From Amphiscolops sp. MND2022 (taxonomy: Eukaryota), in contig OZ076409.1 in NCBI GenBank assembly GCA_964187785.1, positions 62,560,001-62,624,000 of the forward strand: DNA of 64,000 nt, read 5' to 3'. The notes under the pieces were generated by a model. The model saw only the letters and a program-made list of their open reading frames with translations. It was not told where the DNA came from and ran no database searches. The position numbers were made by a program, and so were the translations under genes. This document shows, one piece after another, positions 6,953 through 63,472 of this stretch (positions are counted from its first letter, which is position 1; every line of letters starts with the position of its first letter).

Positions 6953-7157
6953 TGTTGTATTCTATGAACTAGACTTGTAATATAAGAGTTTGTAAGAAAC
7001 AATGTTTTCTCTAGCACAAAGTTTAGTGTAATGAAAGCTGAATAATCTAGAGAACTATATAGTTGTTAGTAAACAACAATAACAAAGATAACTAAAAATA
7101 GCAACGGATTGTTTATCAACAGTTAATCTAAATTTGTCTGTTGTTCATTATTCTTCA
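6953..7157 (-). repeat. 3' LTR of element A
   Basis: Direct repeat of 12780-12984 with TG..CA ends. Confidence 0.95.
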
Positions 7158-10100: not shown

Positions 10101-11691
10101 GTTTTATTAGAGGTTCTAGTGCTTGGTGGTCCGTCAATAATTTGACGGGTTTGCCGTAAATATATAGTCGGAAATGTTCTAAACCCCAGACTACCGCTAA
10201 TAGTTCGAGCTCGTTAATTGCGTATTTTTTTTCTGTATCCGATAGAAATCTGCTTGCGAATGCTATCGGTTTTAAGTCGCCGTTGTTTTGTTCTTGCCAG
10301 AGGGTTGCGCCCAATCCCTTTGTACTGGCATCGGTTGTGAGTGTATTCGGTCGAGCGGAACTGTAGTGAGCGAGACACGGTATTTCCGTGATTTTTTGCT
10401 TTAATTGGTTGAATGCTTCGGAGTGTTCCGTTGACCAGTTCCAGTTGTTTTTCTTCTTTAACAACTGTCTCAATAGATCCGTTTGTGCTGACAGGTTTTC
10501 GATATATTTCGAGAGGTATTGAATTGCCCCTAGAAATGATTTCAATTCCTTTTCGTTTTTTGGTTCTTTTAATTCTTGTATCGCTTTTAGTTTATCTTGT
10601 AACGGTCTGATACCGTTTTGGTCAATTTTGTGACCTACCCACTCTATTTCGGTTTTGTAAAATTCTGTTTTGTTTTCGCTCAGTCTATATCCTGCGTTTT
10701 CTAATTTTGTTAGTACCTCAATTAACTCACGTGTATGTTGTTCTTTTGTTCCTTTTGTGACGACTAATATGTCATCTAACCACGCCGGATGTTTGTTCTC
10801 CAGTGTTTGGTCTATCTTTTCTTGAAATATGGTCGGTATGTCCGCCAGGCCGTAGAATCCCTTCAGGAATCTGTAGTATCCGGTGAAATTGCCTCCGGTT
10901 ATTGCAAATATACACAGATCCATTGCGTGTTTTGATAGCTGCATTTGTCCGTAGGCGTAGTCCAAGTCGAATTTGGATATCCATATTTGGTCGGGTGCTC
11001 CGTCTGCTATTTTTCTGGATATTCGTGAGATGAGTTCCTCCATATTCGGCATTTGTGCTTTCCGTTTCACGGTTATTTCATTTAGTTTCCGTGAATCTAA
11101 AGCAATTTTTACCGATTTATCTTTTTTCACGGTTATCACTGCCGGACTGACGAAACAATTTTCGTTGATATTTGTTGCCTTCTCGATATGTCCATTTTTC
11201 TTCAGCTTTTCAATTTCTTTACCGACTGCGGGTTGTAGATGTATTGGTATCGGACGACCTTTTTGTTGTATTAGCTTGGCGTCCGGTTTTAATTCGATGT
11301 CTACTTCTATTCCTTTTATTGTTTTGTTTTCGTGGAACAGTTTTTTGAATTTTCTCTTCAACTCGGTTATGTCCGGGTCTTCTTTTACATTCTGGATCTT
11401 CAGGTTAGTCTCCTCCATTTCTAGCTTTATCCCCAGGTGTTTCATCCAATCTAGTCCAAGTAATGGATTCGTTTTTTTCGTAGTTATCAGTAGTTCTAGC
11501 TTTTTTGTTTCCCCGTTGATTTCAACGTTAGCTATTGTTTTTCCTTCGAATTGAATTTTGTTGTTGTTTACATCTCTGTATTCAGAATGTAGTGGCTTCA
11601 TTGGTGTTATTTGGTTAAACATTTGTTTTGGAATCAGAGTGACCGGTGATCCGCTGTCTATAATGAATTTGATTGGACGGTTATTAACCAA
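7123..11691 (-). pseudogene. pol: Pol of element A (protease, RT, RNase H, long spacer, integrase, long C-terminal tail); frameshifts near 8490 and 7500
   Basis: IIDSGS (PR), WLDDIL (RT), TDASTKGLGA / NELELLAV (RH), H..GHP..C..C and IQLDF/TDKA (IN). The integrase continues as GLVERGVRTLK in ORF 7467..8465. Confidence 0.92.
7158..7170 (-). other. Polypurine tract of element A
   Basis: GTAGAGGGGGAAA on the minus strand abutting the 3' LTR. Confidence 0.85.
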
Positions 11692-12731
11692 TGCCGTTTT
11701 TGTGATAAATAGCTGACCGTCACTGGCTATTTGTTTTGTTGAATGGATTGTTTTCGTAATAAGGTGTATTTTATTTGGTGTCCATTCGTCTTCTTCTGCG
11801 CTTGTTGCTTCTGATTCCGGATGAATGTGTTTTATCTTTCGGTCCGTTCTCTGTTTTGTACGGCAGAATTTTGCGTAGTGGCCAATTTTTCCGCAGTTTA
11901 GGCACTTTTTTGTTTTTGCTGGGCAGTCGTGATGTTTATTCCAGTTTGGTGCTCCGCATCTAATGCAGTCGACTACTCTGACTTTATTTGGTTTGTTTCG
12001 TTCCGGTTTTTGGTAGCTTCTTTTTTTTCGACGTGTTTTATTTTTGTTTCTTCTTCCGTATCCCGAGATTCATTCATTTTTTCGTACATGTATTCGTGGA
12101 TTGTGTCAGTTATTGCTTCTACCGACATGTCCCCTTTCTTTATTTTCTTTTTTAGGTCATTGTCTCCCGTGGTTTTCCCGATTACTGAAAGAAATTTTGA
12201 TGCCAGCAGTTCTGCCGCTGTTATTTCTTCAAATTCGCAGTTTTTTTCGATTTCGAGTATTCTTTTCCATGTTTCTGCTGCGGATTCTCCGGGTTCCCGC
12301 TTTAAATTGAAGAAATCAGCTCTACTATGGTGTTTATTCCGTTCCGGAATAAAGTGTAGTCTGAATAGTGCGTAGAGACGGTATAATGGTAGAGAATTCG
12401 GTTCTCTTTCTCTTACCGTCTTTGTCATTTCGGTGAGTGCTGCTTGTCCGACCGCCCAGATGAAAACGTCTTTTATTTCGTCTTCGAGTTGGTCTCTGAA
12501 TTGGGGAAGCACTTCTTTGGAGTTGGTCATCTTTGATAAATCTATTTCCCGTGTCATTTTGATATATTGGGTGAATTTTCTCCACCAGAGCTTTGCACTG
12601 GTGTGATCGGTTTTTTCTAAGATCGGAATGGGCAACTTTTGTATTGTTGTCCGTTCTCCCGATCTCGTTGTTGTATTGTTTGGGAGTGAATGGCTGCTTG
12701 CTTCTCCCGCGTTGTCTGGTTCGTCTTCCAT
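11692..12731 (-). CDS. gag: Gag of element A; zinc knuckles lie in the -1 frame after an A8 run near 12021-12028
   Basis: ORF 11973..12731 follows the PBS. CIRCGAPNWNKHHDC and CLNCGKIGHYAKFC are in the pol frame at about 11870-11970. Confidence 0.88.
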
Positions 12732-12761
12732 TTTTGCAGTTTCTTTTTTTTCTGTAGGTTC

Positions 12762-12779
12762 AGATTGCTGACTGCGCCA
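12762..12779 (-). other. Primer-binding site of element A (tRNA-Ser-like)
   Basis: TGGCGCAGTC directly after the 5' LTR; complementary to the ...GACTGCGCCA 3' end of animal tRNA-Ser. Confidence 0.75.
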
Positions 12780-12984
12780 TGTTGTATTCTATGAACTAGA
12801 CTTGTAATATAAGAGTTTTTAAGAAACAATGTTTTCTCTAGCACAAAGTTTAGTGTAATGAAAGCTGAATAATCTAGAGAACTATATAGTTGTTAGTAAA
12901 CAACAATAACAAAGATAACTAAAAATAGCAACGGATTGTTTATCAACAGTTAATCTAAATTTGTCTGTTGTTCATTATTCTTCA
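12780..12984 (-). repeat. 5' LTR of element A
   Basis: Direct repeat of 6953-7157. Confidence 0.95.
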
Positions 12985-13899: not shown

Positions 13900-15178
13900 T
13901 CCGAAGATAAAACTAAACTAAATAGAAACATTCGCCATGATTGATTGACGCTCTCCGATCACGCAGATACCGAGCAAAAAACCAGACACAAATTTTGAGG
14001 CAAATCAAATATAAAGTTTAGATGTGACGAAAAATCAAATGCCATTTGACAAATGGCACTCAAAAGAGGAACAGAAATTGAACATCACTATCACAGAAGA
14101 AAATCTACAACAGCAGAAGCCAATGTTGGAACTTTCGATTCCCAAAATAATTTTCGGCTATGCCTATGTGCAATTAAATAAAAGTAACAAAGAAGTGCCC
14201 GGAAACACTGCTTATTTGCAGTAGTTGGAATGTTACAAAAAGTTGACAAAACACTAAACTTCCATAAGACAAGAAGATCAATCAATAGAGACCAAAAAGA
14301 AATCGAACGGGTACTTACGAGACTGCAAATACCGGTTACCGTAGAAGCAAATTGAAGAAATATGTCTTGGCCAAAAATGACAAATCCAAAATAAAACCTA
14401 TTGAAGAAAAAAGAGAATCAGTAACAAAACTCAACAACCTCCCGAAAAACCACAAAGATCTCAAGTAATTCCTAGGGACATTCCAACACCTCTAAATATG
14501 TGAGAAACATTTTCGATGACAGGTAAAATGCAGAAAAATCGATAAAGACAATGAAAAATGGAATGGTCGCAAGAACGTCAAAAAGAGTTGGAAGCATTGG
14601 ATGAAAATATGAAAACATCCCAAAGTTACCGAGTTTCTCTGAATACGCAAAGAATTTTGTCACAACTGACACCATCACAAACGGGCTAGGAGCGGTACTA
14701 TGGCACGAACAAAAGGCGAAAAGCGACAGTCTATAGTTTTTGCTAGCCGTTTGAACGACGCAGAACGAAAATACACGATAAACAAACTAGAGTCATTTGT
14801 CTGAGCATGCAGTCTCGAACATGTCGGATTCATTGTAAATGGGATGGAGTAATGCTGAAAACAAACCACACAGCGCTACAACTACCCCTGCGGAAGATCC
14901 GTGCTCACAAACAATACAGCGCTTGTTTATCACGTTGGAACGACCGCTTGTCGCACTTCGACGTATCTGTACGAAATTGCACCAGAAAAAAAACTATTTT
15001 ACCATATTACCATGGCAAAAACCCGGTTGCAAAGTCAAATCCAGAATGTGAATACGCAGAAGAATAGACAGCAAACTGCATGAAATAATTCAAAACTGAA
15101 CTGGGAAAACACAATTCGATGGAATAAATAACTAATCACACGGAAAACGAATTCAATAAATTTGTCAATCAAGCCAAA
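13900..15178 (+). pseudogene. Highly decayed Mag-like pol relic; insertion target of element B
   Basis: RNase H remnants TTDTITNGLGAVLW, FASRL, AERKYTINKLE, KQYSACLSRWNDRLSHFD and EYAEE match element A Pol; many stops; left boundary approximate. Confidence 0.65.
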
Positions 15179-16707
15179 TGTCCCAGGCGGCCGCCTGTGA
15201 TGGGAATCTGTATTCAATAAGCCACAGCTACCAAAGAGCCCTGCCGAATACCCTCCCAATAAATTAAAACTTGTTCGGAAAGTAATATTTCGATTGCTTA
15301 GTATTAGTTGATTTTATACTCAATGTAAAATGTTAGATGCTGTTACTATTCATATGTATATTAATGTACGGTGAATTTGAAATTGGACACCAAGGCGTAC
15401 AGGCAAAGGAAACGAGTTCAAATGTTTTCTTGCCTGTCGCCTTGGACAAAGCATCCAATTTGAAATCAACCAATCAGAGAGCAGTATTTAGTTATGTACA
15501 TGTACAGTTGCTATTAAACCAATATGGCGGTATTAGTACTTGCGCCGTACTTGGCTTTCATTCTCACGGCTTGGAAATAAATAAAGGACAGCGTGTCCAC
15601 TTTGACACAAGCCGACAATGCTGTTATTTTAAATAGTTGAAAGCTGCTCTATTAGTTGCTATAATAAGACAGCGTGGATACTTGACCATTCCTGTACCTT
15701 GAAAGTACAGAAATTAAAATCTTGATGCTTACTATTTTAGATACATTCTAGCTAATATGGCTAGAAAAGTCATGTTATAAAACATGATACATGAATTGTT
15801 GCTTTTACATGTTAATATATGTAATTCTTGGCTGTTATTGTCATTGTAGCCATGGAGGCCGTATTAATATTCAGTCACCGCTAGCCCTTTGAAGTATATA
15901 TTTAGTGTGTTGATGACATCACGGTGCTATTTTTAGCCGTTATGTTCTAAAAATAGATGCATGACACCCTGAAATTAGATCATCACCCCCGCCCTAACTA
16001 TAAATACCCAGGACTAGCTGTCCTCAGGGACACAATTTGACAAGCGATATTATTATCAGTTTCACCTTTTTGATAATACTCAGATACAAATTATTAACCG
16101 TTCAGTTGTTAATAACCGATTACTAGAATAATTTAAATATTACCTCTAGTACAATCATTTATGCCTTCCACAAGAAGACAGAAAGCCAAGGCAAGAAAGT
16201 CTAGAGAAATGGACATGATGTCCGATATAGACAACTTGGACGTAATGTTAGGTAATGGGAGTGAAAATCCTATTGAGAGAGAATTAGCAGATGCAATCGA
16301 ACAGTCCTCTTTCCAGGGAGACTACGAAGGAAATGAGTACCAAAGGAACAATTATAACTTTGTACAGGAAAATGAGCCAATGAGGCACAATGAAGTTAGA
16401 CAGTCCTTTGAAACTTTTACAAATGAATTCAACCTCAGATTGTCTCAAGAAATGGATTCCATGATGTCCATGGTCCATAACCAGATAAACAGGGCAATTA
16501 GCACTGCTATATCAGAAAGGGTGATCCCAGAGATCCAAAACATTGTGAGTTCAATGTCATCTTCAGGAAATAGGGACACTGAGGCCAGTATGTCCCCAGG
16601 TAGTCAAGAAAATAGGGAAAGTTCATCCGGGTTGAAAACTAAAATAACGAAAAAGGACTCACGGTCCGTAGGTGATTTGAGAGACACCACGGGGCGTGGC
16701 TCTTACA
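15179..16707 (+). repeat. 5' LTR of element B
   Basis: Direct repeat of 29254-30782, followed immediately by a TGG PBS. Confidence 0.95.
15999..16006 (+). promoter_or_regulatory. TATA box of the element B LTR promoter
   Basis: TATAAATA about 160 bp before the gag ATG; same motif at the equivalent place in element C (56151-56158). Confidence 0.7.
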
Positions 16708-16719
16708 TGGTGACAGGAG
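16708..16719 (+). other. Primer-binding site of element B (tRNA-Leu-like), inside the gag coding sequence
   Basis: TGGTGACAGGAG directly after the LTR CA; resembles the Leu-type TGGTGTCAGRAG. Confidence 0.65.
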
Positions 16720-17829
16720 CTAACAACAGACATTTCCTGAATTTCTCACTGGACGAATCCACTCAATCCCAAACCTGGCGAGACAACAATCAAACCACAA
16801 TGTCTCTCTGGACACCACTCTGCCAGCCCCAGAACAAGAGGTTCCTGAGACACCTCAGGACCCCTTGAACAGATTGGCCGACGTCCTGGTCAACTTGCAA
16901 AATAAGCCACAAACGATGACCATCCGACCAGTCCAAACCACACCAATGACATTTGACGGGAAAAGTGAAAAATTTGAACTCTTTGAAGACCTATTCCACA
17001 CGATGATCAAAATGCAACCGGCCATGACAGAGCAAATGAAAATTAACCATTTTCATTCCTTGCTTAGGAAAGGGGCCCTGCAGACTTTCAGGAATATAAA
17101 CTCAATTAACCGTCAAACGCTCGAGGACGTGCTGGTCATATTCCGGAGGAAATACGTAAAACCGGAATCCCAAGCAACGGCAAAACACAAATGGCATCGA
17201 CTAATTTTCGACCCGAATACCATGAAATTGCCGGATTTCTTGGAAGAACTGAACCAGGGGGCAGAAAAAGCATTTGGCGAGAATGCGAAAAGCATGATTG
17301 ACAGTTTATTGTACTCAAAACTGCCTCCAAAATTAAAACGATCTGTCAATATGGCCCGCCTAGAGAACGGGACATATGAAGAAATCGTTGCTCATCTAGA
17401 ACGAGAACTTGAACTTAATGCATTGGAAGAATCTGATGACTTACCAATGGCCACTATGGCCTCTGCGTCCACCAGTAACAGCAACCTGCTGTCCAATGGC
17501 ATAAACACAAACAAGGACGCACAATGCTCCTATTGCAAAGCCACAGGCCACTTCTATAAGAACTGCCCTAAATTGAAAAAGAAAAAGGAATTGGAGGACA
17601 AAAATGGCAAAAAGCCCCAACGCCCTACATACCCAGAATGCCCTACTTGCGGAAAGAAAAATCACCCCGTTGAGAGATGCTGGAAAGGGGCTGGAGCACA
17701 TTTACGCCCCAAAAGGACACGTCCTGAAGATAAGGCTGATGACACCTCTGGAGATGAAAAATCATCCAAGAAGTCAACTAGCCCCGAAACCACATCTTCA
17801 AGCCATTCATCTTCTCGAAAAACCGATTC

Positions 17830-17839
17830 AAAAAACTAA
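17830..17839 (+). promoter_or_regulatory. -1 ribosomal frameshift site A_AAA_AAC followed by the gag stop
   Basis: The -1 frame is open into pol; identical heptamer and stop in element C. Confidence 0.85.
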
Positions 17840-20800
17840 TTTCGCCACGACTCCAAGTTTCCAACCAGATGTCAGTGCGACAATATGTCATATCTGACCC
17901 ACCAAACATTATTTATAAACAAACTCAAAACGATACCACAGGAATTCCATCGACTGTCTGGCAGCAGCAAATGGCCAACGCCCGCATGGAAACTCAACAT
18001 ATTATCCATAGCGACCACCCATACTTATATAGACGAACAAGTTACGACAACGACTCGGAAACTCACTTTCGCCCCTTACAAACTGTCGAAGATTATAACC
18101 CTCAATACTATGACCCCGAGTATGGCAAAGACCCGTACTGGGACGAAGAACTATATGACAAAACCAATTTACAATTTCGAAACGAAGATTACCCTCCAAC
18201 TGACGACGAGGACGACCCAGACATTGAAGACAACACACTGTCTCGGGCCCTCATTGATCCTTGGCAGCCAAATTTTGATGCAATAATACAAGGAGTAGAC
18301 GCCACTCAACAACAGGAAGGCCACAAAGCCTCTAACAGACTTTTAGATGAAACGGCCTTCCTAGATCTCTTAGTGGCCAAGGAATGAGAGCCGTCCTACG
18401 TTCCCCTTTCAACAAACCTTGGGCTCAAATTTAAAAGACGAATGCTCTATTTCCCAATGGATTTTGGAGAGTTAACCCTAGACGGCCTAATCGACACTGG
18501 AGCCCACTCCAGTGCAATACCGGAAGCAGACCTTAGAAAGATACGCCTATTGGCCCCCCAGTCGATAGTAAAAGAAGGCCCTGCTCCATCTTTTCAAATA
18601 ATGGTCGCAAATGGTGATTTAGAAAACACAAAGAGCACAGTTGAACTAAAATTTGAGGTGGGAGACATAGAATTTCATGAAATCTTCATTGTAATGGAAA
18701 AACTGTCTAGCCCCATAATTGGACTGATGTTCCTGCAGAGGAACCACACCGTCTTGGACATGCGCCAAGGTATACTCAATTTCCCTTACTTCTCGATGCA
18801 ATTAAAAACGGCCGACCACAAGTATTCAAATGTAATCGAGCCAATTCTCAACCCTGAAGGCATCACCATTCCTCCGAATGACCTTGCAGTCATCTCTATA
18901 CAGTCCCAGATCTATGCCGAAAATGCAGTCACGGGGATATTACAACCCAGTGACCTCCTCCATGAAGAAGGTGACGTTACATTTTGCGCCGCCATAGTCA
19001 CGTTGCATGAAGGGACTATGAGGATACACGTTAACAATTTTACTGACCACCCCTACACACTCAAAAAGGGGCTACATATCGCAAATTTCTCAGTGATGAC
19101 TCCTGAACAGATGAAACATGTCAGGCCAATAGACCCAGTGTCCATCTGGCATTTACTAAACGAAAATGAAGAAGACGCTATCTACTATATCAGTAGCCTC
19201 CTTAAAGCTAACCGAAATAACGACCAGTATGAACAATATTGGTTCCCGACACCTGAGAACCCAGGCGATGAAGCATCACATACGCCAATCCAGCAAAGAA
19301 TCCTCAGGGATTTAAGAAATCTAGAAGAAATAGAAAAACTCAACCCGCAAGACAATGCTGAATCTAGGCAAAAATTCCTCAGCAATTTTGACTGGAAGGA
19401 CTCAATGCTACAACAGCATGAAATCAAACAAATAGAAGCTCTCTTGGTAGAATTTCACGATATCTTCGCCCGCCACAGATTTGACATTGGCGTCAACGAG
19501 GAATTCACGGTCAAATTGACCCCGAAGAATGATTCACCTGCCTATAGCCAGAGCTTACCTACTCCGGTCAACCTCAAAGAGGACATATTGGTCGAACTGG
19601 CTTTGCTTCACAAATACGGTATTATTACAACACTACCATTCTCAAAGTACGCCAGTCCCATATTCGCCCAGAAAAAACCAAATGGCAAGTTAAGATTACT
19701 GGTTGACTTGAGGAAAATCAATAATCTCATATCCGACGATTATATCAACAACAATCACCCAGTCAGCACCTTAACGGATGCCGCGCAGCACATGGCCGGG
19801 AAAAAGCTTTTCTGTAAACTCGATTGTTCGCAAGCCTATCATTGTCTCCCAATAGCTGACCAGAGGTCTATTGAAATGCTTGCTTTCAATTTTGCTAGCA
19901 GGACCTTTGCCTATCGCAGATTGGCGCAAGGCCTCAGCAGAGCCTTATCGGCCTTCTCCAGCTTTATACGAGAGTATTTAGACCGGGTGATCAAAGCAGA
20001 TCAATGCGCCCAATATGTGGACGATATCGGCATTGCGGCCAACGATGCCGAACATCTCATAACAAACCTCAGGGCTACCTTCCAATGTATCAGAGAAGCC
20101 GGACTCAAACTGTCCATGCACAAGTGCCACTTTGGCACTACCGAAATTGATTTTCTTGGGAGAACCATCACCCCTGAGGGTGTCAAACCCCAAAAGGAAA
20201 GAATCACCAACTTCTTGGAAAAGACGAAATTTCCAAAGTCCAAGAAGGCCTTACAGCGTTACCTTGGCTTCCTCAATTACTACAGGAATTATATACCAAG
20301 ACTATCTGAAAAACTCGTTCCCTTCTTCCAATTGCTCAAAAAGGACGAGAAGGTACTAGTGACGCAAGAGTTGGTTGAACAATTTAATGAAATCAACCGA
20401 GACTTAGATAGATGTAGTCAACTGGCGCTGAAACAACCTCTGCCGAACAAACAGCTCGTCCTGATGACCGATGCAAGTTTTACAGCAGCCGGTTACGCCA
20501 TATTGACCGAAGACGACCCAAATCAAAAACACACTTCCGTTAAAAAGTCCTATGCGCCGATTGCATACGGATCAAAAACTTTCACGCCTTCTCAGCTTAA
20601 AATGTCAATATATGCAAAGGAATTCCTAGCTATATATTATGCATTTAAGGAATTTGGACACATTTTCTGGGGAACACCTCAACCTGTGATTATACTCACA
20701 GACAACAAATCGGTCACGAGGTTCTTCCAGACCAAGATCGTTCCACCGCCACTCTGGAATGCTTGTGACTTTGTCATTCAATTCAACTTCATTATAGCTC

Positions 20801-22938
20801 ACATTCCAGGCAAGAATAACACAGCGGCAGATTATCTGTCTCGTATGGAAATGGACCCTACTGAAAAGTTGGTCCTGAAAATACGAGAAGACGTAGATAC
20901 TAGACCGATCGAAGTAAATGTCCAATCAGCCGGCGTGTCAGAAGAAGAACAAATTTTCTTCACCGAGGAGGATAATGAAACAGAAGAACAGATTTGGGAA
21001 CGGAAAAAACAATCCAAAAAGGGACTCATGATCCCTGAGACAATAATCCACATTGACGCCATATCCGAAAATACAATAGAAGAAATTACCAATTTCACTC
21101 AAAAATTGCGACGAACTAATCAGATACTGCTCGAACAGTCTAAAGATCCCATCTTGCTCCAATTAAAAGCAAAAATTCAGAAGGAAGAATACTCTGAAGA
21201 AATCTTGCAACAGGATACTCGGTACAAGTACTACTTGAACAACATGGACCGAATAGTCCTTAAGGACGAAATCGTGACAAGGCAGTACTATGACGAAACT
21301 GGACAGATCAAATACCATCAAATTCTGTTACCGAAACACCTAGTTCAAGAATTATTACAAGCAATACATGGCACGGCACATCGACATCCAGGCATCTCTA
21401 AAATGCTGCAAGAAATTCGCCAAAAGTACTACTACCCAGGAATAGCAAAACTTGTCAAAAAATGGGTAGATGGCTGTGAAATATGTGCCAGAGACAAACG
21501 GGTCCCTAATGCTGTAATTACCCCAGAATTACTGGATTTGCCTGAATGGGACCTTGGTCCAGAAGACGCCATGCAAATTGACCTATTACCAAATTTACCG
21601 ACTAGTGGAGGATACCAAACGGTGATGACGGCAATAGATGTATTCTCAAGATACTTGTTCGCCTACCCGCTAATTGAGGCTACAGCCGCAAATGTGACCA
21701 AGGTGATAATTGATATAATGACGAAGCATTCATATTTGCCGACAACTCTCATCACAGACAAGGGCTCCGCATTTACTTCAACAATTCTAGCAGAAATCAC
21801 CAAAATTCTGGGAATAACACTTAGATGCGCTACTACCAAACATCCGCAAACGATCGGCAAACTTGAGAGGACACACGCCTCTTTAAAAACCAACCTGAAG
21901 ATGGCCTCAGGGGAATATCGTCGTCAATGGCACAAATATTTACCATTAGCAGTGCTCAACTATAACACTACTTATCACGCTAGTATTGGTTGTGAGCCTA
22001 GCAAAGTCTTCCATGGCCGAATCCCCTACAATGTCCTTGATCATAAATTAGGAAATAATCCTAATAAAAATTTCCTACCGACAACTGAATTTGCAGAAGA
22101 ATTACAGCAGAGGACGCAAATCCTCATTGATCAGACAAAAAAGAATATTATGCAGTCGTATTTAAAGTACAAGGAGTACTACGACCGCAAGGCCAAAGCG
22201 GCTCCGCTACAAGAGAAAGACTACTGTTTTGTTCTTCAACCGAAAGCGGATAGTCAAGGCTCTAAAATACCATTTAGGGACTTCCGATGGATTGGTTCCT
22301 TTGTCGTCCAAAAAACCTTACCAAATAACAATTATATAGTGCGTCGTTTAAATACGAATAAAACGCAGATCTTGCACCGGATCAGGCTCAAAAAATTTGT
22401 TCCAAACACCCCATTAGAGGACAAATTTAAAGAAGAGAAATTACAGCCTGATGAGGAGATAGTAATACCGCAAGATGATTTGTATACCATCTCATGGGAA
22501 GCGGACTTTGAGTACGAGCTATTCGAGCCGAAGACAAATGACTGGCCACACACGGCCACGCGTCTGCCACAGGACGCCGCGAACGGAGAAGTCGACTATT
22601 ACGTCACCGAGAATGAAAGCAGCAGCGTAAACGAAAGCGAGCGCAGCAGCGAAAGAAGAAATGACAATGACGTCAGCGAGAACGAAATAAGGCCGAGATC
22701 GGCCACCAGCCGTGATGCGCCGTCCCCTCTGCATGAATCGCCTAGTAGGACGGAAAATGAAAATGACGTCACTAATGAATTAAATGATGACGGAAACATT
22801 CCAAAAAGGGCCGCAGATATTACCGTGCCCGGAATATCGGAAAACGAAAGAAATGAGGAAAATTCTAGTCCTAGAGGAGGGAAATATAATCGTCGACCTA
22901 ACCCTACCCCCAACTTTACTGATGAATACAGATATTAG
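17830..22938 (+). pseudogene. pol: Pol of element B (N-terminal extension, PR, dUTPase-like fold, RT, RH, IN); single in-frame TGA at 18385-18387
   Basis: LIDTGA, YVDDI, TDASF, H..AHRHPG..CEIC, QIDL/TDKG/KLER. The TGA aligns with a Gly codon in element C. Confidence 0.95.
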
Positions 22939-23198
22939 CCAGATATGTAAATTAATGTCCCAACCGCCACTCAGACTGACAAATGACCTTTTTTACTTGG
23001 GACTACTCTGACTCTAATATATATACAAAGAAACAGAAAACGTGGACTCAACGTCCACAAATACAAAACGAGTCATGAAATACTGATTTAGCAATATAAA
23101 ATAGACTGCGAAGAAATAAACAATTTCAGAAACTGCAAGTGAAACAGAAAACTATAAATACACAGCAACAACTAAGAACAAATGTACACTATGTACAT

Positions 23199-26100
23199 TT
23201 AATGTTTACTAGAACCCTGCTGCAGCTCTTTAACGGTCTTCTCTATTTCCAAAGAAGGGATATTGCCAAAGTGGGCTAACTTGGAGGACTTCCCAGGAGA
23301 ACAGAACGGATTACCCACTTCACTTGCTTCAGAAGGCAAATCGAAATGGGCCTTCTTGACCCCCTCAGTATCAGTCCCGTGAATTTTGTGGGCTGCCAGA
23401 AGTTCCTTATGTATGGAGATCTGCCCAAATGAATCCACATGGGACCAAGGGTCCCCTGAGACATTGCCAGACGAGAATTTGGCATTCAAAAGATGGTAGC
23501 GCGTGAGAGCTGCTTCAGTAACACTGTAGGGAATGGCTCCGGGGACATGAGCTAAATATGACTGTGCCGGAAACAAAACATCTGATAGACGACAAAACGA
23601 ATCAGAGGAGTCCATATTGTGAAATTTGATGGCCGGCAACGGAACGCTAGCCTCAGTAAGACACATGCAGCTGAGGCGGAAAAGATGGAATAGGTGTGGA
23701 CGGGCGGTCAATGCAGGCATCCCGATCAGGAAGGCAGTCACATCGTGCACCAGCTCAGGGGAATTCATCAAGCTAGGGCAGGCATTGCGGAAATCGTCGA
23801 TGAATCCCACGTACTCATCACGGTAATCGGACTCAGAGTCCGCAGACACCCACCAGCTGGAACGTGTCAAACAACGAGGTAAAACAGAATAGGGCTTGCT
23901 CCATGGGCTGCGTTGACAGCACAGTCAAATCAAAAGCAGCCATCCCTCTCACAATATGGGCTGTAAGGCGAATATCGCCCAGGAGCGATTCGAGGATGTT
24001 GACGATGAAGGAGCGGGCCTGGCTAGCGAACATTTCCTTCATGTTTTTGGCTAGTTTCTCGAACGCCTGCGCTTGGTCCGACTTGGAGCTCAACTCCTTC
24101 TTGGCCTTCTGTTGACAAGCTTGGTCAATGTCTGTTTTTAACTTCAGTCGCAACAAGAAGTCCCGGCTGGAAAGTTGCCGTACCCCGTCTAATTGCAGTT
24201 GCAAAAGCCCAGACCAATCAGTGTCCGCGGGGGTGTGCTTGGGTAACAGGGCCCGTTGACATAATCTCCGTATGTATCGGCAGAGCTCTCCAAAGGTGAA
24301 AAATCCTGAGTCCCGTCGCTTGATGAGACTCCGTTCGAAGCACTTGGTGTCTAAACGGTCAAAAGACCCATTAGGCATACTATAGCCCAGTGCCGATTAA
24401 GGCCTATGGTTTTTGTTTGACAAACATGATGGAATGTGGGATATGTAAACGATCAAAAATTGTCATCAAAACTTGAAGGGAATATGGAAACAGAACTAAC
24501 AATCGCGGACTAGCCGTCCGAAGAATTCAACCTTCAGAGGAAACAGGTCGTCAGACAGAATGGTCCATTCCAAGCTCTGGGGCTGAAGCAAAACACGTAC
24601 CACTCTATAGAGCCGAAATGAAGACAAATAGGATCAATGTACTTTGCAGGACGATTACAAACTGGCAGGGAACTGCAAAAATGGAGCTGGGAGATACTAA
24701 CTTTTCCTTTGACTCCTTGCATGGCGTAGGATGGGGCTCTGCTGGTGAGGTAATCCAGAATGGCTTTCCAGTGCTGTATTAGCTCCGAGCAAATTGCAGG
24801 AATGTTACGTAGCTCAAAGGTGGAAGCTTCTATTGCCTATAATGGCATACAAACCATAAGGACCTATTTGAGGGTGAAAATTATACAGGGAGCAAAAGGT
24901 AGCCTACCTTTGTCAGCTCAGGCGATTCCAACGTCCAGGGCTCTGTCAAAATGCCGCTGAAGAACACGATCAAATATCGCAATTGTGAGAAAAAATCCAT
25001 TGGCCCAAAGACACTTCCTCCTTCTTTGTACATCAAGGCCTGCAGAGACAGCACGTCGAACCGAAATGGGTACTGGACCCCGCGTGAGAATAAACCACAA
25101 TTGTCCAAGGTCCGAACCAGAGAAGCGGGACAACCGGACACACTCACGAGGCCAGGCTTGAAAGAGATGACTGAAAGGAGTCGAGACAGTCCCGTAATGA
25201 AGTTGGAGGGAAACCCGGCAACCAAAGGACATCGAAACAACGGGACCCGTACCAAGGTGTTCTCTTTCCAAAAACGGACTGACATAGTTTGATTTCTTCC
25301 GGTTGCTTCAACTTCAAGGGCATACATGTCGTTCAGAGCAATGTGGTGAGACAGATCCTCAATGGCACAGGTAAAGATGTGATGAGATATCACCTAAACC
25401 AAAATGAAAGATCTTGTTAGCTATGGAAAAGCAGAACCTCATTTCAACCACCAAAAGAAAGAGACTTACGGTCATTGTGGCTGAACTCCAATCAAAAGGG
25501 GAGAACTGCTCTTTGTGGTTCATGTATTCCCCTACTTGGGACCACAGTGTTTGTAGCAGGGAGATGTTGCCATCGTAGGGAACAAAACTCCCAACGAGAG
25601 CTATTTGAACGCTGGCACGCTGGTCCTCTGTAGTCTGCTGTCCTTCCGAATTGGCCAAATATTCATCATAAAAGGGGTACCTCTCCCCCACGTCGACGAG
25701 TGGTGCATTTTCAAAGAGGGGTTTCTCTCGCTCAAGTTCCAAAGGAGTCAAGATTCGTCCGTCTTTTCCTCGGACCTGATGTCGAGTGATGCCAGTCACT
25801 TTATCTGTCACGCTTAAGTGTTCAAAGCGCCATCTCTGGTCTTTCCTCAGATGAGCCTCGCCTTGATAATGTCTGATGATTTCCCGCGCCCCTTTTGTCT
25901 TGATGGAAACATTGGCCTTACAAATTTGGCAATAGAACTTGTGTTGATTGTGGGAAGGATCCAAAGGCCCAGTCACGAAAGTTTTAGTCCATTTGATTCC
26001 TTTGAAGTAGGACTCCTTCATAACTTTCCCTGTTCGTCCGGACACCTTCTGGCGTTTTCGTGCTGGTTTAGTTGGGGTCTTGTTTCCTGTGGATTTGGGA

Positions 26101-27200
26101 AATAATGCGGCCAATGGGGCATAATCCTCGGCGCTGTACCCACTACCAGGACTTGTTGGCAACATTGGAGTAGCAGTTCTGGTCGGTTGAGATTGTGGTC
26201 TGAAGCTAGGCGAAGTTGGCGAGTAATTGTGCTCGATATGGAAATCTAAACTATCTAGAGCGTCATCTGAGTTGAGGGCACCACTTGTATAACTGCCGCT
26301 TGCACAGTCTTCTCCGCTGCTTTCTCCTTCAGAGCTAGATTGTTGTCCAGGGCCTGGAGTGCCGGCACGCCTTACATGGCGACAACGCTCTTTTGAGATG
26401 ACTTTTCCGTCAGCGGCTTGAAGGAGCAGGGATTTCATCAAATGGAATGATGAGAGGAGTGACTCGTCCGAGATGGTGCGGAGGACCGTATGCATCTGCC
26501 CTTCACTCAGGGCAATGACAGGTTGGCTAACGGGAATATTGATGGGTTTATTCTCCGTGAAGCATTTGCGTAAAGCTGCTCGCCCGGTGATGGAAAGTTG
26601 CCTGGGTGTAGCGGTAGCTTTGCTTGTGCTGGGTGGTTCATCTAGCAAATCGTCGCTGCTTGAATTCCCCCTCTTTGTTCCAGCGTCATCTCCTGAGGAT
26701 GGCGAGGGGACTGTGACGAAAATGTTGTTGGCGCCTTGTAGAGTAGTACCACTAACCCCTGATCCGTCAAGCAATTCCCCGAACTCGCTCGTGTCGGTAG
26801 AGTTTGGGCCCTGAACGAAGTGTCCAGGGGTATCCTCTAAATCCTCTCCTCCCAAATTGGTCTCTTCTACTGCATCTGTTGTCAGGGGAGGGCTGATCTC
26901 CATGAGGTCGGAAACTGACTCTTTTTGGGACAGTACATTATTTAGCTCGGCTTCAATTTGGTCAGCACTATTGGGAAGTGACTCGGAGGACTCGTTGTCT
27001 CTCTGGACAATGGTAGCCACGGTCCGCTCAGCGTAAGCACTCAGGCTTTCGGCATTGGACCCACTTGAATTCGACGAGGGAGATCGTCCAGTAGGGGCAT
27101 TTTCATTTGGAACAGCTTCTTTGGGGATTTCTGTCGCTGTTTGATTTTCGGTTGTTTCCTTGGTTGGGTTTCCAGGAGTTGTATCTTCATTGGACGACAT
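23199..27200 (-). CDS. Antisense 5-exon accessory gene (about 1190 aa) derived from a hAT transposase lacking catalytic residues; one frameshift near 23855
   Basis: Exons 27200-25470, 25393-24908, 24836-24702, 24582-24501 and 24350-23199 are joined in frame by four GT-AG introns. BED-like finger FYCQICK..RHYQGEAH; homologous C-terminus in element C. Confidence 0.8.
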
Positions 27201-28508
27201 GTCTAAATAGAAACAAATGAAGGTTAGCGGTGAACTTCCTGTATGAACCAATATTCCGCGTATGAAAGTCTTCCGGAAGCAGACTACGTTGAACACTTGT
27301 GAACACTTGTGTTATTTGGACAGGAAGTACGTGAATGGAATGAGAGCTCTGATCAAGCATTAATTTCAATTCAAAAAATATATTGGAACAAAAGGAAACT
27401 CAAGATCAACCGACTTACTTGGATTTTGATGTAGGAAGATGTTGAAGTTGTGTTGCGTGCAGATGGAAGCGGACGGGATGGCAGGGAGGACAGCTCTGGA
27501 CAAGTAGTTTGGCGATTGATGTCCACGAAGACACGGTGGCCAATTAAAATCTATGACGTTGGAAAACGCTGAGAAATTGGATTTCCTTGAGAGGAAGAAG
27601 AAGAAGGGGCAAAGAAGGATTGTGTTGGCTGAGAATGGCCTGAAGAGGGGCTAGAGGTCGTCTTTCCGAGGACAATCCAAAAATCCCACAAATGAGAAGA
27701 AAACGTAAAGGCAAATGCAACTAAATACGACTTGTGGACTAAAGCTAACTATGGATTAAATACGATGAAGAGTAAATGTGGTGGATAAATACAAGTAATA
27801 CAAAGGAGAAAAGAGTAATACAAATGGAATTGAGATGTAAAAGAATTTGAAGAGAATTGGCGATGTGACAATACGTCAAAGTTGGAGTTCGTGGCTATAC
27901 AGTTTGGTGTCAAATTTACAATTATGTACAATTCAAGTTATTATGTGGATATAGTCTGCCAGCAATATCTACATTATTTCATCTTATTTTGAAGAAAATT
28001 TCGTCATTCTACGAATTATTTCATGATTTTACCATTTCTTTATTTATTTTCAAGGTCATTTTATAATGTTCCTCATATGGATTCATGGCCTTGAAAACCC
28101 ATTTTGAGTTGAGAGAGAAATTACTGCTTTCCTATTGGCTATCTAGAACTAAGGCGGACGGCATGGCCTTCAGCTATATATTCACCCACTTGAAATTTTC
28201 AAGTAGTTCATGAGTGTTAATAAACACTCAAAGATGCTATTGATGGCTACTCGCCGCTCAGGAGAGCGGTAAAGATTATTAGGTGTCAACAAACGGGTGT
28301 CGGCTTGTCATCAAAAACATTGTGGCGTTGTTATTGAAGAATTTCCAAGGAGAGAGACGAGAAACCCGGGAAATCCACCAAACAAAGTCTGAAGGAAAAT
28401 CCGCTTGAAAATATTTCATTCAGACTTTTCTCTACTGCAAGAACTAGTTGGCTCTTGGAAATTGTTACTTTCAAAATTGCGAAGAAAATAATAAAAGAAA
28501 GATTTGAA

Positions 28509-29342
28509 ATGGACCAGCAAGAGTTATTTCCGGAAAGCACCTTATTTCCTATGGACTTCCAAGGCGCGGCACCGGGGGATGGTATAATTTACATCTCGAG
28601 CGATGAATCAATGGAGTGTCTAAGTACGAGTTCGGTGGAAGACCTGGACGACTTGTCAGAACCGGAAGACGACGAAGTCGCACTTTTGGCCCGATGTATA
28701 GAGAGGCAGATGGAAATTCCATCTACAAGCAAAGCAATCCCGGTTCCTGATAACGACACTGTTAAATACAAGAGGAAATGGACACCCAGGCCAATGCCCA
28801 CTCCAGAACCTACATTCAATGCTGGTTATTTTGACTTGGGCATGGGAAGGGGGCCAGTCCCGAGAGACAGCCGCCAGAAGAACAATCACCCGATTAATGT
28901 GTGCAGACAGTTGATACCGATGGTAGATACCCCGCTTTCGCCGCCACCGCAGGACAAATATCCAATGTACGACGAGCAAAACCCGGTGGGACAAACAGTA
29001 CTACTCAGCGAACAAGGGATGCAGAATTACTCCCATTTCAAAATGGCAGATGGAAGTCTTACACCGTACATAACAGGATGTACAGATTGCCTTGTGTGCG
29101 GCAAATCGGTGGAGCAGATTCAGGATGAGGCTGTGATTGACTATCTTCACAAGACGGCAGTTTACGGGGAACTACCAGAGCAATTCAACGCTAGGAGACT
29201 CGCTTTCCTGGAGGGAATGAAAGTCGGCTCTTTTATGTTGATTCCAGGGGGAGTGTCCCAGGCGGCCGCCTGTGATGGGAATCTGTATTCAATAAGCCAC
29301 AGCTACCAAAGAGCCCTGCCGAATACCCTCCCAATAAATTAA
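28509..29342 (+). CDS. Accessory ORF (277 aa from first ATG), acidic/Pro-rich with CTDCLVC cluster; reads through the PPT into the 3' LTR
   Basis: Open frame; the last 29 codons are conserved with synonymous changes and the same stop position in the element C LTR. Confidence 0.8.
   Translation: MDQQELFPESTLFPMDFQGAAPGDGIIYISSDESMECLSTSSVEDLDDLSEPEDDEVALLARCIERQMEIPSTSKAIPVPDNDTVKYKRKWTPRPMPTPEPTFNAGYFDLGMGRGPVPRDSRQKNNHPINVCRQLIPMVDTPLSPPPQDKYPMYDEQNPVGQTVLLSEQGMQNYSHFKMADGSLTPYITGCTDCLVCGKSVEQIQDEAVIDYLHKTAVYGELPEQFNARRLAFLEGMKVGSFMLIPGGVSQAAACDGNLYSISHSYQRALPNTLPIN
29246..29253 (+). other. Polypurine tract of element B
   Basis: AGGGGGAG abutting the TG of the 3' LTR. Confidence 0.8.
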
Positions 29343-30782
29343 AACTTGTTCGGAAAGTAATATTTCGATTGCTTAGTATTAGTTGATTTTATACTCAATG
29401 TAAAATGTTAGATGCTGTTACTATTCATATGTATATTAATGTACGGTGAATTTGAAATTGGACACCAAGGCGTACAGGCAAAGGAAACGAGTTCAAATGT
29501 TTTCTTGCCTGTCGCCTTGGACAAAGCATCCAATTTGAAATCAACCAATCAGAGAGCAGTATTTAGTTATGTACATGTACAGTTGCTATTAAACCAATGT
29601 GGCGGTATTAGTACTTGCGCCGTACTTGGCTTTCATTCTCACGGCTTGGAAATAAATAAAGGACAGCGTGTCCACTTTGACACAAGCCGACAATGCTGTT
29701 ATTTTAAATAGTTGAAAGCTGCTCTATTAGTTGCTATAATAAGACAGCGTGGATACTTGACCATTCCTGTACCTTGAAAGTACAGAAATTAAAATCTTGA
29801 TGCTTACTATTTTAGATACATTCTAGCTAATATGGCTAGAAAAGTCATGTTATAAAACATGATACATGAATTGTTGCTTTTACATGTTAATATATGTAAT
29901 TCTTGGCTGTTATTGTCATTGTAGCCATGGAGGCCGTATTAATATTCAGTCACCGCTAGCCCTTTGAAGTATATATTTAGTGTGTTGATGACATCACGGT
30001 GCTATTTTTAGCCGTTATGTTCTAAAAATAGATGCATGACACCCTGAAATTAGATCATCACCCCCGCCCTAACTATAAATACCCAGGACTAGCTGTCCTC
30101 AGGGACACAATTTGACAAGCGATATTATTATCAGTTTCACCTTTTTGATAATACTCAGATACAAATTATTAACCGTTCAGTTGTTAATAACCGATTACTA
30201 GAATAATTTAAATATTACCTCTAGTACAATCATTTATGCCTTCCACAAGAAGACAGAAAGCCAAGGCAAGAAAGTCTAGAGAAATGGACATGATGTCCGA
30301 TATAGACAACTTGGACGTAATGTTAGGTAATGGGAGTGAAAATCCTATTGAGAAAGAATTAGCAGATGCAATCGAACAGTCCTCTTTCCAGGGAGACTAC
30401 GAAGGAATTGAGTACCAAAGGAACAATTATAACGTTGTACAGGAAAATGAGCCAATGAGGCACGATGAAGTTAGACAGTCCTTCGAAACTTTTACAAATG
30501 AATTCAACCTCAGATTGTCTCAAGAAATGGATTCCATGATGTCCATGGTCCATAACCAGATAAACAGGGCAATTAGCACTGCTATATCAGAAAGGGTGAT
30601 CCCGGAGATCCAAAACATTGTGAGTTCAATGTCATCTTCAGGAAATAGGGACACTGAGGCCAGTATGTCCCCAGGTAGTCAAGAAAATAGGGAAAGTTCA
30701 TCCGGGTTGAAAACTAAAATAACGAAAAAGGACTCACGGTCCGTAGGTGATTTGAGAGACACCACGGGGCGTGGCTCTTACA
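29254..30782 (+). repeat. 3' LTR of element B
   Basis: Direct repeat of 15179-16707. Confidence 0.95.
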
Positions 30783-32516
30783 CCAAACTACGGACAATTG
30801 GACTGCATAATTAACACAATCATCTATCACGTTGAAAATCGAAGTAACAGTGACGAACAAAGTGACGTAACAAGCAACCGAAAGGTTCACGTTTCATTGT
30901 GATTGAGCTCAATCTAACGCATGCTTTGTCTATGATGGAGCCGGAGAACCCGTCGATTTTCAGTTGATCTTTAAATGAGTTAAAAAGTTTGTGGAAAACA
31001 AAGGGAACATGATTTAGTCCGATAACACGTTCTGACTCCGATATCAAGATTTTCTTCATTGAAAAAAAAACAATTTGGACAACTTTCAGTTGAAAAGTTG
31101 CCAATTGAAAAAGAAAAATTTGCCTTTGAAGTGCGTGAAGAAAAATTTTAGTTCACACTTGACACCCATTTGTGGGTGAGCAATGTGCTTTGACGCAAGC
31201 CATTTGCTCCAAATTTTCTCCAGGTAAGTTATACACCGTTGGGAACTGTCACTCAGCGATGACGCATCGAACTCTTCGCAATTTCCGTCTTCTTCCCCGG
31301 GTAAAGTAACATCGGAGTCACTGTCGTTCATTCTTCACAGAGTTTTTGAGTTTCACCCAGATTACAAACTTAAAAAACTCAAAGTCGACGGTATTTTATA
31401 TCACAGAACAACAAACGCATAAATGAAGCACGTTTTTTGAAGTCTGTAGGAAATGAAGGAGTATTCTGGGAAAGTAAGCTTCTAGTTTCTGGCTCATTGT
31501 TTGCCAAAAAGAAACTGGTTTAAACGGAATGGTTTTAACGGAATGGGAAATTGTTTCCAATTGAAACAATGTCTGGGGAATTCAAACTTTCTCAAGCAAG
31601 GTTTCATATATGGTCTCAAAAATTGTTTTAAACTGACGTTATTGTTATATGACTTGGCGAGGTTTGACTTTAAGAGAAGAAGGGAGCTTTACAGTTTTAA
31701 TTGGAAAAGTGAAAATTCTTCAACAAAGAATTTCATCTTGCAAAATAGTCATGGCATCAAGGTCTACTAGTTGACTGCTTTCGGTAGAAAGATCGTTATA
31801 TTTTCATTAGAAAGTAATCTGGGTACCTTTTATTTTTTTCGCGCAATTGGAAAAATGACTCCTTGTGATGTAATGATAAACAACACAGCAATAAAAAGTA
31901 CTAATTTAGTTAGAATGACTTATTAAACCCTTTTGGCGGTGTAACCAAAAGAAAAGTCACTGAAAATGTGAACAAACTGTCACTGCTTGTTATTGACTTT
32001 TGAAAACTTTGTCAACCACGTTTTTCGGTTGTTAACTCTTGATCACTGAAGAGTAAACATGTCAGATATACAAATGAGGTTGTCTTTTTTGAAATTTCTA
32101 GAAGATGTTTCAGCAAAAAGTCAATTTTTCTATAACTGTTCATATTCGATGTTCATTTTTAAATGTTTAAGATAATAATGTGATTCTAACGATGAACAAT
32201 TTATTGTTACTTTTTGCATTGCTTCCTGGAAAGAACTGCCCGAACATAAAATTAACTTAGAAAATAAGATAAAACTAGATCAGACCAAAGGGTCTTTTGT
32301 ATATTGATGCATTGGGATGTTTTTCATGAAATTTTGTGAATTATCTGGAATTGATTTTAGCAATCAGCAAAGTCGCAACTGAGTTTTTTCTATTCAATTC
32401 ATGTTGAAATGACGATCTCGAGAGTCCATCTTTGGTATTATTCCAATTTCTAACATTTTTAGTTGGAGCTTTAATAAAAGAAACGTGACTATTAAAGTGG
32501 CACTTCGTCGTGTTTT

Positions 32517-36700: not shown

Positions 36701-36910
36701 TGCTGATTAATTCAACTCTTCTCTCGGTTTTTGATAACGTGGGATAATAAATTTGCTTGATAAGGACAGAGCGTGGAATGTGTAGCAAGGAGCAATATAT
36801 GTACACGTAGTTGGAACGACAAAGTAATCAAATTTACTCTACTCATGAAAGAGATTACAAGTGTAGCTGAACTTACGCAGTTGAAAATGGGGGCTTCCCA
36901 CGAAGCAGAA

Positions 36911-37006
36911 TATTCACTAAGCCGAAAAAACGAAAATATTCACTAAGCCGAAAAAACGAAAGTATTCACTAAGCCGAAAAAACGAAAGTATTCACTAAGC
37001 CGAAAA
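36911..37006 (+). repeat. 26-bp tandem repeat (about 4 copies) in the left TIR
   Basis: TATTCACTAAGCCGAAAAAACGAAA(A/G) at 36911, 36937, 36963 and 36989; two inverted copies at the right end. Confidence 0.9.
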
Positions 37007-37255
37007 TTACGTAGCACTGTATAATTCTCTGCAATCTAATTGGCTGACGCGGGCGGACCGGAACGAAGTCCGTACAGAATTTTTTTTAAAAATGAAATTT
37101 TCAATTTCCCCCAGTCAGCTATGTTCACATACTCCTAGTACCCTAAATGCAGGAGCGAAGCGACGTGCCATTTGGCCATGCCTCAATGTTGCTACCTGGC
37201 GAAGGGAGCGAAGCGACTGAGCCATACAACAAATATTCTAACCTATTCAAATAAA

Positions 37256-63229: not shown

Positions 63230-63472
63230 AGAAAATTAAATTCGGCTCAGGAAATTAGCCCTGAACTGTTTTATTCTCTTCTCTTTTACTTTTCTTTTTA
63301 CTAGTCCCATGCAGCAGTATCTTTTGAATAAATAAAGGGACACTTGGACGATCCCTTACAAAGAAAATAAATACGGGATCAGAAGAATCGAGAGCAACAA
63401 AATGAAATCAATAATACAAACAGAAAATCAACAAAGTTTACAGTCTGCAAGTACATAAATACATATGTACAA

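Follow-up and report, generated by a model that had tools for sequence, protein, structure and literature searches.

The 64,000-nucleotide window analysed here (Amphiscolops sp. MND2022, 1.07-Gb assembly GCA_964187785.1, contig OZ076409.1, positions 62,560,001-62,624,000 of the forward strand) contains a 15.6-kb long terminal repeat (LTR) retrotransposon with an intron-bearing antisense gene and a fourth, sense open reading frame (ORF) downstream of gag and pol. We give a probability of about one half to the reading that this element belongs to a young, abundant, env-less Gypsy-type lineage with two selected cassette genes, of which the antisense one would encode a hAT-derived nuclear DNA-binding protein that helps transcription. 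The anatomy of the element, the exon structure of the antisense gene, purifying selection, the presence of the extra genes in the copies tested and their exchange as cassettes were established from the sequence. Coordinates are positions within the window, position 1 being 62,560,001.

The two direct LTRs of 1,529 bp (15179-16707 and 29254-30782, plus strand) have TG...CA termini, are 99.5% identical in pairwise comparison and are bordered by the 5-bp target-site duplication (TSD) CCAAA at 15174-15178 and 30783-30787. A primer-binding site (PBS)-like TGGTGACAG (16708-16725, plus strand) abuts the 5′ LTR end, and a polypurine tract (29247-29253, plus strand) lies within the fourth ORF just before the 3′ LTR. 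The structural hallmarks of Ty3/Gypsy elements are thus present (direct TG...CA LTRs, PBS, polypurine tract and short TSD), and a 5-bp TSD was found in 33 of 33 copies in which a script could place both ends. The window copy is damaged three times, by a frameshift near 16720 just past the PBS, a stop at 18385 and a frameshift near 23850; other copies read through at these sites. The highest 19-residue Kyte-Doolittle value over all cargo parts was 1.57, which argues that there is no env-like membrane segment, and no env Pfam family matched the element at cut-off. The first-pass annotation had described a TSD-flanked element of this size with gag, frameshifted pol, a spliced antisense gene and a sense ORF, and with no env-like signal-peptide or transmembrane ORF; the LTRs, the CCAAA duplication, the reading frames and the hydropathy profile bear out both statements.

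Conservation places five coding exons and four introns on the minus strand, encoding about 1,200 amino acids. Exon A (25470-27200, 577 codons) carries a low-complexity N-terminus, a basic patch, a CCHH zinc finger and a helical domain, and exon B (24908-25393, 162 codons) the first half of an RNase H-like fold. Exon C (24702-24836) has 45 codons, exon C2 (24501-24582) has 82 nt, and exon D (23199-24350, about 384 codons) is helical and holds the last of the three lesions of the window copy. In most other subfamilies an in-frame Met-Asp start lies about 18 codons upstream of the exon A start of the window copy. Of 40 copies, 37-40 keep the GT/AG dinucleotides at each of seven junctions; the eighth has them in 34, and five copies lack the intron there. 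In 36 of the 40 copies the length of exon B was 486 or 495 nt; exon C measured 135 nt and exon C2 82 nt. The introns (64-170 nt) vary freely, and the exon phases join in frame. The third intron, which precedes exon C2, is precisely absent from five of the 40 copies, and the three of these in the tree form one clade, which suggests that an antisense mRNA was once copied back. As a held-out test, eight of nine copies fetched later matched all eight splice sites and three exon lengths, and database proteins P0135 and P0258 join exon A to exon B at the predicted point. We infer from these signatures that the antisense gene is spliced. An apparent loss of intron 1 at one locus (C8:59.34 Mb) was rejected when the intron proved to be present, and a weak search for longer exon D homologues yielded none among 3,244 candidates. 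A conserved acceptor-like TTTAG stands just before exon A with a conserved GGAAG about 36 nt earlier (27208-27243); the pair may belong to an optional mini-intron or else to a non-coding exon further upstream, with a donor-like site near 27420.

The conserved antisense exons gave a median ratio of nonsynonymous to synonymous substitution rates (dN/dS) of 0.09-0.11, and the low-complexity N-terminus 0.33, from 7-25 unsaturated, non-independent pairs. Medians in the conserved cargo parts ranged from 0.09 to 0.16, and the substitution patterns show purifying selection on every extra coding part.

A hAT origin of the antisense protein was suspected from motifs before any structure was predicted. 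The A+B model followed the natural frame of the exon A end, a 30-codon in-frame intron and exon B, and reached a predicted local distance difference test score (pLDDT) of 63. Its top Foldseek match against 350,542 chains was Hermes transposase (E 0.028, 380 columns, template modelling score 0.21), and four further Hermes entries were in the list. VIA aligned residues 1-273 of the exon D model (pLDDT 74) to Hermes 367-593 (Z 5.4, root-mean-square deviation 5.0, 165 residues) at rank 11, the longest alignment among the VIA matches listed. The two parts, folded separately, therefore point to the same Hermes chain in colinear order, at sub-threshold scores; on the A+B model VIA recovered the generic RNase H-like half only (Z ~6). 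The Atlas lead for P0258 was DUF659 (0.76), which we take to be a family of hAT proteins, and a viral hAT-domain protein at rank 14 in the match list was counted toward a hAT origin. The invariant C-x2-C...H-x4-H motif in exon A gave weak C2H2 Pfam matches, to KIN17-type models in 16 of 46 alignment rows, and none to zf-BED. On the evidence of these models the antisense protein is quite probably of hAT ancestry.

Residues D180, D248, R318, W319 and E572 are reported as essential in Hermes (PMC6027215). In alignment column counts neither catalytic-type strand showed a conserved Asp, and the likely third site lacked a conserved Glu. With catalytic positions registered provisionally, by eye against known motifs, Glu, Ala or Thr occupies the likely first site, acids are missing from the second strand, and Glu stands at neither of the candidates for the third site. 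The antisense protein has likely lost catalytic activity.

The fourth ORF (28476-29342, plus strand, 288 codons) encodes an acidic protein with an invariant SPP motif and Cys/His residues, the last 29 codons lying in the 3′ LTR. A hydrophobic-SSD/E motif in 16 of 22 members resembles a SUMO-interacting motif. The dN/dS was 0.16 in the internal part and 0.36 in the 29 LTR codons (273 pairs), in which third positions are about twice as variable as second positions. Conservation starts abruptly 6-14 codons upstream of the first ATG, and 44 of 45 copies have no in-frame ATG upstream. The codon at the conservation start is ATT in 36 copies, ATA in 9 and ATC in none, within a CAAA-NNN-G-like context that has A at -3 and G at +4 in 45/45; for comparison, ATC is missing from just 2 of 40 other conserved Ile columns. 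The pattern is only suggestive because the copies are related, and it makes translation from a non-AUG codon reasonably likely. A splice acceptor for the fourth ORF was considered and rejected: distant clades lack the candidate near 28055, and the coding start shows no conserved AG. The protein fell into no known family, a profile search of PDB sequences gave no significant match, and no relationship to the antisense protein was found.

A conserved region between the two extra genes (27230-28300) likely drives both in opposite directions, to judge from its motifs. It contains conserved blocks near 27885 and 27955, a CCAAT-like site near 28136 and, on the antisense side, conserved ETS-like CTTCCGGAAG at 27270 and CAGGAAGT near 27322, the ETS-like and CCAAT-like labels being our own assumption. 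Short direct repeats at 27285-27312, on the upstream side of the antisense gene, differ between cassette types and are candidate binding sites.

Fifty further loci were collected, with antisense-gene queries of rising distance or, in the case of element C, as the neighbour of the element in the window. Pol and the antisense exons occur in the same arrangement in 50/50, and tblastn matched the internal fourth ORF in 48. Because these loci had been selected by cargo, 20 integrase matches, all 94-95% identical, were picked at even steps from a list of 138. The antisense gene was present in 20/20 and the fourth ORF in 19, the exception being a rearranged, prematurely ending stretch, and no cargo-less Gypsy relative occurred among the matches listed (integrase identity at least 94%). 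LTR pairs are at least 99% identical in 34 of 48 copies (median 99.5%), which indicates recent insertion. First-look candidates amounted to about 8,000 with exon A and 26,000 with integrase, figures that are not copy numbers. Element C (55145-64000, plus strand, extending about 7.2 kb past the window) is a distant member of the lineage, sharing 78% protein identity with the window element in Pol and 35-41% in the antisense exons. Its continuation beyond the window completes a 16,045-bp element with the TSD ACTAC and the same plan, as the first-pass annotation had maintained.

Distant exon A homologues, all in ENA only (P0125, P0132, P0134, P0135, P0137, P0139, P0141, P0151, P0154 and P0258), sit in several cases on short contigs. 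P0135 and P0258 have at most 39% and 28% identity, respectively, to anything scored in this genome, so relatives exist in other assemblies and the lineage likely spans more than one species; none was confirmed in metagenome and viral contigs. Spacings of about 14 kb between copies (C9 14.56-14.62 Mb, C11 38.66-38.69 Mb and C5 3.37-3.40 Mb) suggest tandem arrays sharing LTRs. Internal duplications of 1-2.3 kb were seen in L035-L036, L065-L066 and L081-L082, one of which repeats part of the antisense cassette.

The extra genes are exchanged as cassettes and are not co-inherited with pol, as comparison of the copies indicates. Pairs that are 97-99% identical in gag, pol, the fourth ORF and the LTR are yet only 50-63% identical across the antisense exons, and the antisense N-terminus falls to 39% in such backbone-identical pairs; the reverse pattern, similar antisense exons on a diverged backbone, was also seen. 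The exchanged antisense cassette measures 4.5 kb, with about 50% identity between types, and includes its own upstream region, the identity changing in sharp steps near the pol end and at about 27800-27900. Approximately unbiased tests on 19 copies with all modules open (LTR-gag, pol, antisense and fourth ORF) rejected 12/12 cross-module topologies (p ≤0.0064). The co-phylogeny of the accessory genes with pol proposed as a check in the first-pass annotation accordingly failed, since the trees of all four modules reject each other. Its description of the cargo as a stable family trait stands for presence, seen in all 20 integrase-chosen copies, and not for inheritance. Some deep groups remain together across modules, which suggests that most exchange is between close backbones. 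The expected route is template switching in co-packaged RNA, a process established for LTR elements.

These features can be joined in one mechanism. A hAT transposase gene would have entered an ancestral element in backward orientation, and because the antisense gene runs backwards its introns would not be removed when the element is copied via sense RNA. Of the domains, the zinc finger and those for dimerisation and insertion would have been kept, and the catalytic residues lost. Sense RNA from the 5′ LTR would yield Gag and, through a -1 frameshift, Gag-Pol; the antisense gene and the fourth ORF would be transcribed from the divergent internal promoter. Translation of the fourth protein would start at AUU or AUA and end in U3; being acidic and equipped with a SUMO-binding-like motif, the protein would act as a co-activator. 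Template switching at the conserved pol end and at the block near 27885 would swap cassettes, and rare cassette types would be favoured. Taken as a nuclear DNA-binding factor and its co-activator, the extra proteins have an even chance, in our analysis, of sustaining transcription against host silencing.

Several observations weigh against this reading. Expression, nuclear location, DNA binding and anti-silencing by the antisense protein are predictions inferred from its sequence. All hAT matches are sub-threshold (no Foldseek E ≤0.001, best VIA Z 6-7). Hermes is absent from both VIA lists for the A+B model, which is of mediocre quality (pLDDT 63) and includes the 30-residue in-frame intron. 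Exon D gave no Foldseek hit, with Hermes not in its list, and a second look with Foldseek and VIA returned nothing informative, Hermes not being among 149 candidates. An unrelated Atlas lead for exon D (TBC, 0.77) was rejected for low recognition. No Pfam hAT family matched any member, none of 18 exon D members showed the C-terminal dimerisation region PF05699 by sequence, profiles of exon A/B and of exon D found nothing significant among PDB sequences, and exon D did not match the sequence of the hAT remnant elsewhere in the window. An invariant Glu stands in strand 1 of exon B (36/36), two residues before the likely first catalytic site, and the registration of these sites is, as stated, by eye. 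The antisense dN/dS values come from few and non-independent pairs. When the antisense type changes, the LTR and fourth ORF stay 97-99% identical, so the antisense target does not co-vary in the LTR.

The sub-threshold scores also feed the view that the antisense protein is not hAT-derived, a generic RNase H-like motif and helical bundles having produced the fold hints; integrases, Pelota and actin-like folds reach Z ~6 on exon B as well. We regard this as unlikely but worth weighing, as two independent models match the same Hermes chain colinearly and the Atlas lead agrees.

If the hAT-like fold is accepted, the protein could serve integration in place of transcription, tethering or protecting the pre-integration complex and steering it to targets, with cassette types that differ in chromatin preference. 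Transposase folds bind DNA ends and targets, the gene is present in every copy tested, and a basic patch lies ahead of the zinc finger. A separate antisense transcript has no evident way into particles, though, and the 5-bp TSD is the same whatever the cassette type, and such a cofactor role appears rather unlikely. A role in RNA metabolism, in which one or both extra proteins act in Rev- or CERV-like export or protection of unspliced genomic RNA, has a precedent in the animal Gypsy element Cer1 (PMC10309623) and could draw on the weak KIN17-type matches of the zinc finger. The LTR-gag region, however, showed no outstanding conserved splice donor on the sense strand, which leaves no evident need for such an exporter, and the domain order suits a DNA transposase; we consider this role improbable. 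Equally improbable is a self-interested or immunity-like cassette whose types restrict each other or limit copy number for the benefit of the host, and which keeps deep alleles circulating. The many types of about 50% identity on near-identical backbones are as expected under frequency-dependent selection, and the cassette moves with its own upstream region, but escape from host small RNAs explains the diversity equally well. The element would be a retro/DNA hybrid if the antisense protein were still active as a DDE nuclease or transposase, its acidic triad being rearranged. Invariant acids are available for this, a Glu in strand 1 of exon B and a number of Asp or Glu residues in the three exons C, C2 and D. 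A hAT DNA transposon would have terminal inverted repeats and an 8-bp TSD around the gene. The hybrid is very improbable, given the lack of a conserved Asp at two expected strands, the location of all 51 loci of the antisense gene inside LTR elements with 5-bp TSDs where both ends were placed, and the fact that no inverted-repeat ends were noticed around the cassette, albeit in no systematic search for them.

The remaining coding capacity is that of a Gypsy-type element. Gag (16161-17839, plus strand) contains a DUF1759-like capsid region and a CCHC knuckle and is interrupted in the window copy by the frameshift near 16720. Its ATG at 16161 lies 547 nt before the 5′ LTR end and about 160 nt past the TATA-like box (15999), which is kept across 47 aligned copies. 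The LTR thus encodes a 182-codon Gag N-terminus (16161-16707, plus strand) with a median dN/dS of 0.13 (100 pairs); with the LTR codons of the fourth ORF also under selection, the first-pass view that both LTR ends are protein-coding holds. In 24 of 50 copies gag is a single open frame between the LTR ATG and the slippery site. A second in-frame ATG straddles the LTR end and PBS, with Met-Val-Thr in all 48 matched copies, and its conservation makes it possible that two Gag forms are produced. A -1 slippery heptamer A-AAA-AAC with the gag stop (17830-17839, plus strand) occurs in 45 of 50 copies, and no strong hairpin was found downstream of it. The pol frame (17782-22938, plus strand) encodes an acidic spacer, protease, dUTPase-like domain, reverse transcriptase, RNase H and integrase, and its Pfam matches follow the Gypsy order protease-reverse transcriptase-RNase H-integrase. 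It is open for more than 1,600 amino acids in 18 of 50 copies, and other copies are open across the stop at 18385. The dUTPase-like domain between protease and reverse transcriptase (about 18820-19110) scores weakly in the window copy (E 0.008) and above cut-off in two close relatives. The best 120 of 403 reverse transcriptase matches were all ENA proteins without names, at identities of at least 71%. Gag matches DUF1759 (E 1e-5), which we take to be typical of Bel/Pao, and the clade assignment is therefore provisional. The spacer from the frameshift to protease (17850-18387, about 185 amino acids), acidic and rich in Tyr and Pro, evolves fast despite purifying selection (dN/dS 0.15) and was assigned to no family.

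Other mobile sequences share the window. A small hAT DNA transposon remnant (36899-38243) with inverted repeats of about 57 bp and subterminal repeats retains a C-terminal transposase fragment (37354-37746; Dimer_Tnp_hAT, E 7e-4) and has no sequence match to the antisense cargo. An ordinary 6-kb Gypsy element on the minus strand (6953-12984) has 205-bp LTRs (99.5% identical), gag and a frameshifted pol, and its ORF at 7467-8597 resembles an integrase tail and not env. A tandem duplication at 46266-50774 (about 2.25 kb, 98% identity) shows reverse transcriptase-like similarity to that element at 10063-10308 and, with integrase remnants nearby at about 51800, represents a decayed retroelement. 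A dispersed 50-90-bp repeat with copies at 33443, 41079, 46171 and 54076 is possibly the end of a short mobile element, and a minus-strand frame at 5505-5996 has a weak QRICH1-domain match (E 2e-4).

The analogy with complex retroviruses drawn in the first-pass annotation stands as a likeness of layout, with four coding units. Its word regulatory for the accessory genes is tentative, and the likely hAT origin, the dUTPase-like domain and the likely non-AUG start had escaped it. Complex retroviruses have accessory ORFs that run into U3 and an internal promoter (HIV Nef, foamy virus Tas/Bet); unlike them, the element has no env and a Gypsy-type pol. An HBZ-type antisense gene is also described in the 3′ region of HTLV (PMC11963269). 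The accompanying claim that the architecture had not been described before was too strong for the layout, as plant and fungal elements are well known to carry antisense ORFs in the interval from pol to the 3′ LTR. In plants these ORFs occur in Retand, Grande and RIRE2 (PMC11963269, PMC7264820), are stated to be of unknown origin and function with no similarity to other transposable elements (PMC7264820), and are represented by Grande gene23, with its own promoter, a nuclear product and a proposed regulatory role (PMC11963269, PMC7264820). Like these Retand/Tat elements, as far as they are described there, the present element has an extended stretch from pol to the 3′ LTR and a conserved antisense ORF in nearly all copies. 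It differs in its four introns, about 1,200 codons, likely hAT fold, lack of any Pfam match to the Retand-lineage antisense domain TRP28 (PF04195) and second, sense gene ending in the LTR; cassette exchange does not feature in the portions of the Retand/Tat accounts consulted. The Gypsy element Boty of Botrytis and Sclerotinia carries an additional antisense gene, brtn (PMC8365987), and is set apart as fungal and by a description, in the available excerpt, without a fourth ORF or LTR-encoded Gag.

Among animals, Cer1 of C. elegans is likewise a Gypsy element with a spliced accessory gene, CERV, a nuclear regulator (PMC10309623); unlike the antisense protein, CERV is made from spliced Cer1 mRNA and exports RNA, and that account, in the sections available, states no transposase origin. 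The bdelloid elements Vesta, Juno and TelKA and planarian Burro have captured family-specific extra ORFs (PMC5408684, PMC6431247). They share the animal Gypsy setting and a dUTPase-like domain between protease and reverse transcriptase, and their cargo is unlike that described here, consisting of env, GDSL, DEDDy or apoptosis-related domains; the available parts of the bdelloid paper's main text mention neither transposases nor introns (PMC5408684), and those of a giant-transposon review neither antisense genes nor hAT (PMC6431247). In the predicted domain order a zinc finger and a helical domain come first, followed by an RNase H-like half, an insertion domain and a C-terminal part, and this order resembles that of Hermes and domesticated hAT genes. 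Unlike Hermes, the antisense protein appears, in the by-eye registration, to lack the five essential residues, and unlike hAT genes it has a 400-residue low-complexity N-terminus and is encoded by a retroelement instead of a DNA transposon or the host. VANC proteins of Arabidopsis VANDAL elements are transposon-encoded anti-silencing proteins that diversify fast between related families (PMC5735166). They serve as a borrowed functional model for fast-diversifying accessory proteins; VANDAL elements differ in being DNA transposons, the proteins are unrelated, and no co-varying target was found here. In an acoel genome half of the sequence is LTR elements, the structure of which is not described in the portion of the paper available (PMC9911081). 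The literature search, which left repeat databases and supplements outside its scope, returned no account of this family or of a hAT-derived gene in an LTR element. The layout is known; the likely hAT origin and the cassette swapping were not found in the literature searched.

Antisense accessory ORFs are a standing puzzle, and this family offers one with a traceable origin, likely a captured DNA transposase. Its hundreds of young copies in natural cargo combinations make the effect of cargo on expression, copy number and insertion site testable. More tentatively, and perhaps doubtfully in its full extent, the LTR lineage may have domesticated a DNA transposase as a catalytically dead, intron-bearing regulator, with dozens of diverged cassettes under frequency-dependent selection against silencing and a SUMO-binding co-activator with a non-AUG start. 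If true, this would be the first transposon-to-transposon domestication of such a kind and would give animals a counterpart to the VANC anti-silencing of plants. Should the extra proteins work against host silencing, they would help to explain how this lineage filled so much of a 1.07-Gb genome and would be candidates for chromatin tools with sequence specificity.

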